Shown one piece after another: positions 30,192-31,491 of a stretch of 31,491 nt of DNA. The stretch comes from Escherichia coli. GTDB lineage: Bacteria; Pseudomonadota; Gammaproteobacteria; Enterobacterales; Enterobacteriaceae. Location of the stretch: assembly GCF_003334255.1 (NCBI RefSeq), contig NZ_QOWU01000059.1; one strand, written 5' to 3'. The notes below the pieces were generated by a model. The model saw nothing but the letters and a program-made list of their open reading frames with translations. It did not search any database and had not been told where the DNA came from. The position numbers were made by a program, and so were the translations under genes. Numbering within the stretch: position 1 is the first letter of the stretch; each line of letters starts with the position of its first letter.

Positions 30192-30590
30192 TCTTTCAGT
30201 TTCTCACTGTCAGTATGCGGCTGAATGGGTTGCTGGCAGTGAACGCCTGGATCATTGAAGGAAAGGCATTATTGCGCAAATAGTTGTCAACCCTGGTGTT
30301 ATCACGGTTGTTTTTATATATCACCGAAATAATCCTCATCGCAACTATTAACAATTTTGATGTCGAAGAGTTATTTGTTAAACAAAATCGTCACCTCAAA
30401 GTGATCAATGTCATGAAAATAAGGTGAAAAATGATAATGCCGACTTATTTATCATTTATATATTGTCGCTGTTTATCTATTTAAATTTTTTGTGCTTTTG
30501 TTTTTGTCTTTACCCTCCGTTTTGGTAATCTGAGCTCATAGGTTATTTGACCAGGAATGTTTGTTAATCCAATGAATGGATGGTTAATCT

Positions 30591-31436
30591 ATGAAACTGA
30601 AAAAACTCCCCGGGTTTAGTTTGGGACTTATTGCTCTGGCGGTGGGTAATGCATATGCAACACAATTGTTGGATGATTATAGTATAATTTCCTATATGAC
30701 TGATGAAGAATCGCCGATTGAAATCAAAGATAATAATCCGATAAGTAATGGAGAGTATCTAACCACTGAAGACGAAAGCCATGCTGTGAAAGTGGATGAC
30801 GGTGTAACTGGATATATAAATAATGCCAGTGTGATGACTAGTGGTGATGGATCTTATGGTATTTCTGTTGATAGTCAAAACAAAGTATTATATATAAGCG
30901 ATAGCGATATTAAGACCTCTGGAAGCGTATCTGACAAAGAAAATGGAGGGATAACAGCCAGCGCAGTAGTCAGTGAATTTGGTGGCACCATCTTTATGAA
31001 TGGTGATAATTCAGTCGAGTCGGGTGGGGCATATTCAGCGGGACTTTTAAGCCAGGTTAATGATTCTGAAAAGATGGTAAATAACACCCGTCTTGAAACC
31101 ACAGATAAAACGAACATTGTTACCTCTGGGGAAAATGCAGTAGGTGTTCTTGCATGTTCAAGTCCTGGAGAGTCTCGAACATGTGTCGATGCTGTAGATG
31201 ATGAAGTTAGTGATTCTAACAGTTACGAAGTTATTAGCCGTGCTGATTTAAAAATGAATGGTGGTTCCATAACAACTAATGGCATTAATAGCTATGGTGC
31301 TTATGCTAATGGGAAAAAAGCATATATTAATTTAGATTATGTGGCACTTGAAACTGTGGCTGATGGAAGTTATGCAGTTGCTATTCGACAAGGTAACATT
31401 GATATAAAAAATAGGGTAATGACTCCAACTTATTGA
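30591..31436 (+). pseudogene. ycgH: N-terminal passenger-domain fragment of an autotransporter (ycgH-like), 281-aa ORF with in-frame stop
   Basis: Signal peptide MKLKKLPGFSLGLIALAVGNAYA, then a Gly/Ser/Asn/Thr-rich beta-helix-like passenger sequence. It ends at 31436 with no beta-barrel translocator domain in this ORF. The window ends 55 bp later, so the remainder cannot be assessed. Confidence 0.5.
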
Positions 31437-31491
31437 TAGTGTTTTATGTTCAGATAATGCCCGATGACTTTGTCATGCAGCTCCACCGATT

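Follow-up and report, generated by a model that had tools for sequence, protein, structure and literature searches.

The ycgH autotransporter gene at the end of an Escherichia coli contig is probably cut by IS1, giving a chimeric 281-codon reading frame

The 31,491 nucleotide (nt) stretch of Escherichia coli DNA analysed here (contig NZ_QOWU01000059.1 of assembly GCF_003334255.1; "the window") has near its right end an open reading frame (ORF) of 281 codons, which a preliminary description, made from the letters alone, had read as a ycgH-like autotransporter passenger fragment left by a decayed adhesin gene. We consider it likely (probability roughly 0.8) that this ORF is the promoter-proximal 824 nt of ycgH cut by the insertion sequence IS1, which yields a chimeric product of 281 amino acids (AAs). 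The features of the region are:

29974–30191, + strand: ymgF, encoding a 72 AA cell-division-associated membrane protein and bounding the spacer upstream; same collinear annotation in strain G6/7, K-12 and other strains
30192–30590, + strand: AT-rich intergenic spacer between ymgF and ycgH; leader and promoter region of the latter
30591–31436, + strand: chimeric 281 AA ORF with an ATG start, 274 ycgH codons, one junction codon, six IS1 codons and an IS1 stop codon
30591–30659, + strand: YcgH Sec-type signal peptide, residues 1–23, MKLKKLPGFSLGLIALAVGNAYA, read directly from the sequence
30660–31414, + strand: native 5' ycgH passenger, from codon 24 through the second base of codon 275
31415–31491, – strand: one terminus of IS1 (77 nt), with the inverted repeat on the 3' side of the transposase gene; this gene runs antisense to ycgH

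Between 29974 and 31414 the window does not differ from E. coli K-12 MG1655 at any base, and this stretch comprises ymgF, the spacer and nt 1 through 824 of ycgH, which in MG1655 is pseudogene b4491 (1219601–1222248). Judged by this 100% identity, the native part of the ORF is more than ycgH-like, as it had been called: it is ycgH itself, the orthologue of K-12 b4491. The order pdeG (28276–29841 in the window), ymgF, ycgH is also that of K-12. The closest complete genomes are those of the human faecal strains G6/7 and G8, with 100.0% identity over 23.4 kb. The G6/7 ycgH gene is uninterrupted, 2648 bp long and 100% identical over the native part; as in other relatives it is flanked downstream by ymgD-ymgG, followed in G6/7 by ymgI.

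An alignment of the window to uninterrupted ycgH diverges directly after ...GATATAAAAAATAG, and the junction reads ...AAAAAATAG/TTCTATTAC... (the slash follows the last native base, 31414). From 31415 the window reads GGTAATGACTCCAACTTATTGATAGTGTTTTATG...; from this position on it is that of the IS1 terminal inverted repeat (GGTAATGACTCC...; GGTAATGACTCCAACTTATTGATAGTG...), which leads without a break into the IS1 body. Over its last 77 nt the window matches the annotated 768 bp IS1 of strain PCP07083 with 0 mismatches (77/77), and these nt also match IS1 copies in strains JX21CE35 and FACU 2024. The likeness to the known element (768 bp; IS1A and IS1B variants) thus extends to an identical 77 nt terminal repeat end and an A/T run as insertion site, but unlike a complete element only this one end is present in the window. 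IS1 reportedly prefers AT-rich runs, and the insertion site is of this kind. The same IS1-end string is found in complete E. coli genomes next to antisense coding sequences annotated "IS1 family transposase" that interrupt ycgH; because the end seen here adjoins the 3' end of the antisense transposase gene in those annotated copies, the transposase of the window's element is also antisense to ycgH.

The stop codon that closes the ORF is IS1 sequence. Uninterrupted ycgH continues from nt 825 as TTCTATTACAACAAC; past the junction, native ycgH is TTCTATTACAAC (protein ...IDIKNSSITTTG..., open in frame), whereas the window has GGTAATGACTCCAACTTATTGA (protein ...IDIKNRVMTPTY, then stop). Codon 275 (AGG) straddles the junction and takes its third base from IS1, codons 276–281 (VMTPTY) are entirely IS1, and with the TGA at 31434–31436 the last 22 nt of the ORF (31415–31436) are IS1 sequence. 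The preliminary description had read the stop codon correctly; the IS1 origin of that stop, and of all of 31415–31491, had escaped it. Its view of the gene as decayed also stands, but what ends the ORF is IS1 after nt 824 and not point decay. Ordinary mutational decay, by which a point nonsense or frameshift mutation would end the ORF and the β-barrel would follow in another frame just downstream, does hold for the IS1-free relatives (a stop at codon 306 in G6/7 and at codon 507 in K-12, with a C-terminal frameshift in both; see below). As an account of the window it is highly improbable, because the stop at 31434–31436 and the 19 nt before it are IS1 and the native sequence is open at this point.

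The N-terminus of the ORF, MKLKKLPGFSLGLIALAVGNAYA/TQ (slash at the predicted cleavage site), has three lysines, a 14-residue hydrophobic core and AYA (an A-x-A motif) before the cleavage site, and by these features MKLKKLPGFSLGLIALAVGNAYA is a classical Sec signal peptide. Residues 24–274 contain 13% S, 10% G, 9% D and 9% N, and G, S, N, T and D together make up 48%, so the description of the ORF as a signal peptide followed by a Gly/Ser/Asn-rich passenger-like sequence of 281 AAs in all was accurate. Pfam and NCBIfam searches of the 281 AA ORF gave no match, in agreement with the earlier observation that it contains no translocator domain. As the passenger N-terminus has no profile, the family assignment comes from nucleotide identity and from the domains encoded downstream in relatives: the 567 AA segment downstream in G6/7 matches the Pfam families AC_1 (1.3e-29), Pertactin (4.2e-9) and Autotransporter beta-domain (8.5e-39). 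The gene is therefore an autotransporter gene, as had been suggested, and of type Va. The translocator is in the uninterrupted gene, and for the window's allele its position lies beyond the IS1 and the contig break. The proposed check for a downstream β-barrel accordingly has an answer in G6/7, where the barrel does continue, with the codon 306 stop and a –1 frameshift; the window itself ends in IS1.

An AlphaFold2 model of the passenger fragment, built on 14 homologues, is all-β with short regular strands (mean predicted local distance difference test score, pLDDT, 70; predicted template modelling score 0.75; residues 1–41 with pLDDT <50). All Foldseek matches to this model in the PDB are right-handed parallel β-helix proteins; they include the autotransporters Vag8 and Ag43 as well as tailspikes and pectate lyases, and no E-value is ≤0.001, the lowest being 9e-3. 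These results are consistent with a β-helical passenger and are not proof of one. Autotransporters of the AIDA-I type (type Va), such as AIDA-I, MisL, YfaL/EhaC and ECSE_1600, have a signal peptide, a β-helical passenger, an AC_1 autochaperone and a 12-strand β-barrel. The C-terminal 12-strand barrel (PF03797/TIGR01414) and the autochaperone are absent from the 281 AA ORF, which ends in IS1; without the distal passenger, autochaperone and barrel it is incapable of autotransporter function, and the window thus contains a fragment of a type Va family member and not a functional member. That the ORF might instead encode a short secreted protein from another family, intact and functional, is the least probable of the readings considered and can practically be set aside: it does run from a start codon through a signal peptide to a stop and belongs to no Pfam or NCBIfam family, but its first 274 codons are identical to ycgH, its C-terminus is encoded by IS1 and its full-length homologues are 880–887 AAs long. 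A repeat search of 29800–31491 gave only short pairs at chance level.

Intact alleles of the gene occur at two places in our set of locus records:

locus record L008, 601–3264: ycgH of strain E118, intact, 887 AAs
locus record L009, 601–3249: "ECIAI39_1904 family autotransporter adhesin" of strain THO-008 (WP_000768526.1), intact, 882 AAs

The E118 YcgH protein (WP_001522908.1) carries no pseudogene flag, matches TIGR01414 with 372.6 bits (cut-off 16) and is 90% identical in AA sequence to the window's 274 native residues; the comparison with intact orthologues that had been proposed thus gives a full-length counterpart. It is organized as in other AIDA-I-type proteins, unlike the window ORF, which stops at residue 281. 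The ECIAI39_1904-type allele occupies the same chromosomal position and has a near-identical β-barrel, and the signal peptide of both the E118 protein and this allele is identical to that of the window; its passenger, however, is only ~42–50% identical to that of the window, which has the K-12/YcgH-type passenger. The two passenger alleles at the ycgH locus look like the outcome of recombinational passenger replacement. An exhaustive search of representative proteins also found a full-length relative of 880 AAs (69% identity, residues 1–882), together with thousands of AIDA-I-type autotransporters that match mainly in the C-terminal half. A word-indexed protein search with the 274 residues had returned fragments of ≤456 AAs and the provisional result that no intact YcgH exists, which the E118, THO-008 and 880 AA proteins disprove.

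The IS1-free relatives carry lesions of their own. In the G6/7 gene a C-to-T change at nt 916 makes codon 306 TAA, and K-12 ycgH, although identical over the native part, differs from the window allele in having no IS1 and is dead by a TAG at codon 507 (nt 1519) and a C-terminal frameshift. The latter is common to G6/7 and K-12: it is a –1 shift within a G-run, ~30 codons short of the end, and replaces the last β-strand. When the stop is reverted and one G is added, an 882 AA ORF results that ends ...NVGVQLGDNGYNDTAVMVGLKYKF (...VMVGLKYKF); the intact E118 protein likewise ends ...VMVGLKYKF, and the position of this C-terminal β-signal is outside the window. The IS1 insertion site is 31 codons upstream of the G6/7 stop. 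Because the lineage of the window matches G6/7 and the gene is inactive there, IS1 probably landed in an already dead gene, and to judge from these relatives the insertion is probably a secondary lesion in a neutrally decaying gene.

The spacer upstream had been described as very AT-rich with poly-T/A tracts. Its GC content is 35.1% (30.6% over 30300–30590; the window overall has 48.1%), it contains runs of T5, A5, T6 and T5, and just 6.5% of equal-sized windows are equally AT-rich; the description fails for the first ~100 nt (30192–30290), which are ~45% GC. The spacer matches that of K-12 at 100% identity, and its conservation over five lineages, those with intact genes among them, is 97%. 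Genomic SELEX (systematic evolution of ligands by exponential enrichment) with K-12 W3110 assigned one site each for RpoD holoenzyme and H-NS to the ymgF>ycgH spacer (Shimada et al., PMC3946193), which gives the proposed H-NS silencing in vitro support in K-12 at the level of binding. A sigma-S chromatin immunoprecipitation sequencing peak at 1219400–1219949 is labelled "ycgH, pseudogene-autotransporter" (PMC4447067), and if its coordinates are those of NC_000913.3 it corresponds to 30390–30939 of the window. A consensus promoter scan of 29800–30700 gave chance-level sites, with none on the + strand in the spacer, and an Rfam search of the whole window at the gathering threshold gave nothing in 29800–31491. 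The single "terminator" predicted in the 29800–30700 scan is within the signal-peptide codons and is probably spurious. Equally or more AT-rich stretches are present at 22551–23880 (iraM-ymgL), 26311–26940 (the bluF-ycgZ divergent spacer) and 27261–28030 (ariR-ymgC). Several spacers between iraM and ycgH are marked as H-NS-bound (PMC3946193), and together with these AT-rich stretches this makes the whole iraM-to-ycgH segment compositionally atypical.

IS1 has also entered ycgH independently in other strains: after nt 707 (9 bp target duplication TAGCTATGG), after nt 822 (8 bp, TAAAAAAT) and after nt 1296 (9 bp, GGAAAAACA). With the window's site the four positions (nt 707, 822, 824 and 1296) fall within 600 bp, and the transposase is antisense to ycgH in all of them. 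The IS1 copies in ycgH are located at:

locus record L001, 6107–6874
locus record L002, 3584–4351
locus record L016, 3196–3963
the window, from 31415

The insertion after nt 822, present in JX21CE35 and FACU 2024, is the nearest to that of the window among complete genomes, lying 2 bp upstream. Between bluR and ycgH, various strains together have about ten IS1 copies, and nine of these have the same orientation. A true IS1 hot spot in and around the 5' third of ycgH seems quite doubtful to us, and the clustering and common orientation may alternatively be due to chance or shared descent; if the hot spot were real, it would suggest that, at silenced AT-rich loci, DNA structure or H-NS directs IS1 to insert in a specific orientation.

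Different subsets of bluF, ycgZ-ymgA-ariR-ymgC, pdeG and ymgF have been lost by IS1-associated deletion in other strains (locus records L006, L014, L015, L016 and L002). IS1 copies with adjacent deletions are found between bluR and ymgF in UTI89, JMF1, S1-CAM-01-A, CUWW10 and JX21CE35: UTI89 lacks ariR-ymgC-pdeG beside an IS1 (L006, 3978–4845), JMF1, S1-CAM-01-A and CUWW10 lack bluF through pdeG or ymgF beside IS1 copies, and bluF is truncated in JX21CE35, where three copies of IS1 are present. The blue-light/biofilm regulatory island beside ycgH is thus repeatedly eroded by IS1. That such deletions are common in the neighbourhood, and that the right junction is beyond the window, favours an IS1-mediated deletion or rearrangement, in which the IS1 at 31415 would be a breakpoint and the rest of ycgH, perhaps with its neighbours, would have been deleted or moved. 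We hold this to be unlikely, though it is the most probable of the alternatives, as the three other IS1 copies in ycgH are simple insertions, each with an 8–9 bp target duplication and followed at once by the rest of the gene, and there is no sign of deletion within the window. A simple insertion would have as its right-hand junction ...GTTGGCAGCATCACC followed by 8–10 bp ending AAAAAATAG and then by TTCTATTACAACAACAGGCAC.

Several points count against a simple IS1 insertion into an already decaying, H-NS-bound ycgH. The right-hand IS1 junction is outside the window, and up to that point simple insertion and IS1-mediated deletion or rearrangement look alike. The exact junction is found in 0 of 5426 complete E. 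coli genomes. The codon 306 stop and the C-terminal frameshift are known from relatives only, in a region outside the window. The H-NS evidence is from K-12 W3110 in vitro and not from the window's strain, and the spacer lacks the promoter given in PMC3946193 (TTGACA-19-TATAAG), the best match to which has one mismatch and lies inside the ORF at 30868–30898.

The absence of the junction from complete genomes, and the fact that the window ends in a multicopy repeat, would also fit an assembly artefact in which IS1 reads were wrongly joined to ycgH at the contig end. The exact 281 AA chimeric protein is, however, encoded on eight public draft contigs from several independent assemblies and read sets (including NCBI GCA_965136505.1 and Logan ERR14335419 and ERR1948968). 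The three draft contigs that were inspected share this junction exactly and break off after 106, 26 and 25 nt of IS1; that they and the window end inside IS1 is explained by the breaking of short-read assemblies at a multicopy repeat. Given, in addition, the AT-rich insertion site and the two complete genomes with IS1 2 bp away, an artefact is extremely improbable, and the junction is a real allele of a circulating lineage and not a chimera of assembly.

By the IS1 insertion that we favour, ycgH, the chromosomal AIDA-I-type (type Va) autotransporter gene of E. coli, would have its native AT-rich, H-NS-bound leader, and a 768 bp IS1 would have inserted into the gene after nt 824 (window 31414) with its transposase antisense. 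Reading across the junction would then give the 281 AA chimera that ends at the TGA in the IS1 terminal repeat, with a Sec signal peptide and ~250 residues of putatively β-helical passenger, and with neither autochaperone nor β-barrel. Such a product, if made, could enter the periplasm but would not be displayed on the cell surface.

The preliminary description had also regarded the locus as horizontally acquired. The atypical composition (38% GC, and 26% GC at third codon positions) agrees with this, but the constant position between ymgF and ymgD in every strain inspected and the presence of ycgH-like sequence in 5089 of the 5426 complete genomes do not, so that the proposal has weak support. 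B2 strains such as UTI89 have internal ycgH deletions. We conclude that ycgH is an old resident locus that is decaying by different routes across lineages, and not a recent island. A second autotransporter β-barrel remnant is found a few kb downstream of ycgH, between ymgJ and minE (L004, 34556–34899; equivalents in L001 and L006); it is frameshifted and without an N-terminus in all strains inspected.

The left third of the window (1–9600) is the right arm of a lambdoid prophage, with the following features:

407–4099: tail tip protein J
4167–4766: Lom-family outer membrane protein
4918–7944: tail fibre
7944–8528: tail fibre assembly protein
8287–8485, + strand: IS009 (RF02111), inside the tail fibre assembly gene, full length, Rfam score 222 bits against a gathering score of 117
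8583–9251, – strand: SAM-dependent methyltransferase

The prophage abuts potB at 9806, which means that potC and potD are displaced, and it seems to have integrated within potC or beside it. The window starts inside a repeated phage region, which suggests a contig boundary there.

In the literature ycgH is treated as a pseudogene and is routinely used as a neutral integration site (PMC12492688; PMC4447067). Both the pseudogene and the insertion sequence are already known; the insertion site is absent from the complete genomes and present in public drafts. The allele is an ordinary strain polymorphism of little biological weight, IS1 disruption of such genes being commonplace, and the 281 AA "gene" is a chimeric product of IS insertion that should not be annotated as a protein. 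What the locus does show is several routes of decay side by side, namely nonsense mutation, frameshift, deletion, IS insertion and allele replacement, while intact alleles survive in some lineages.
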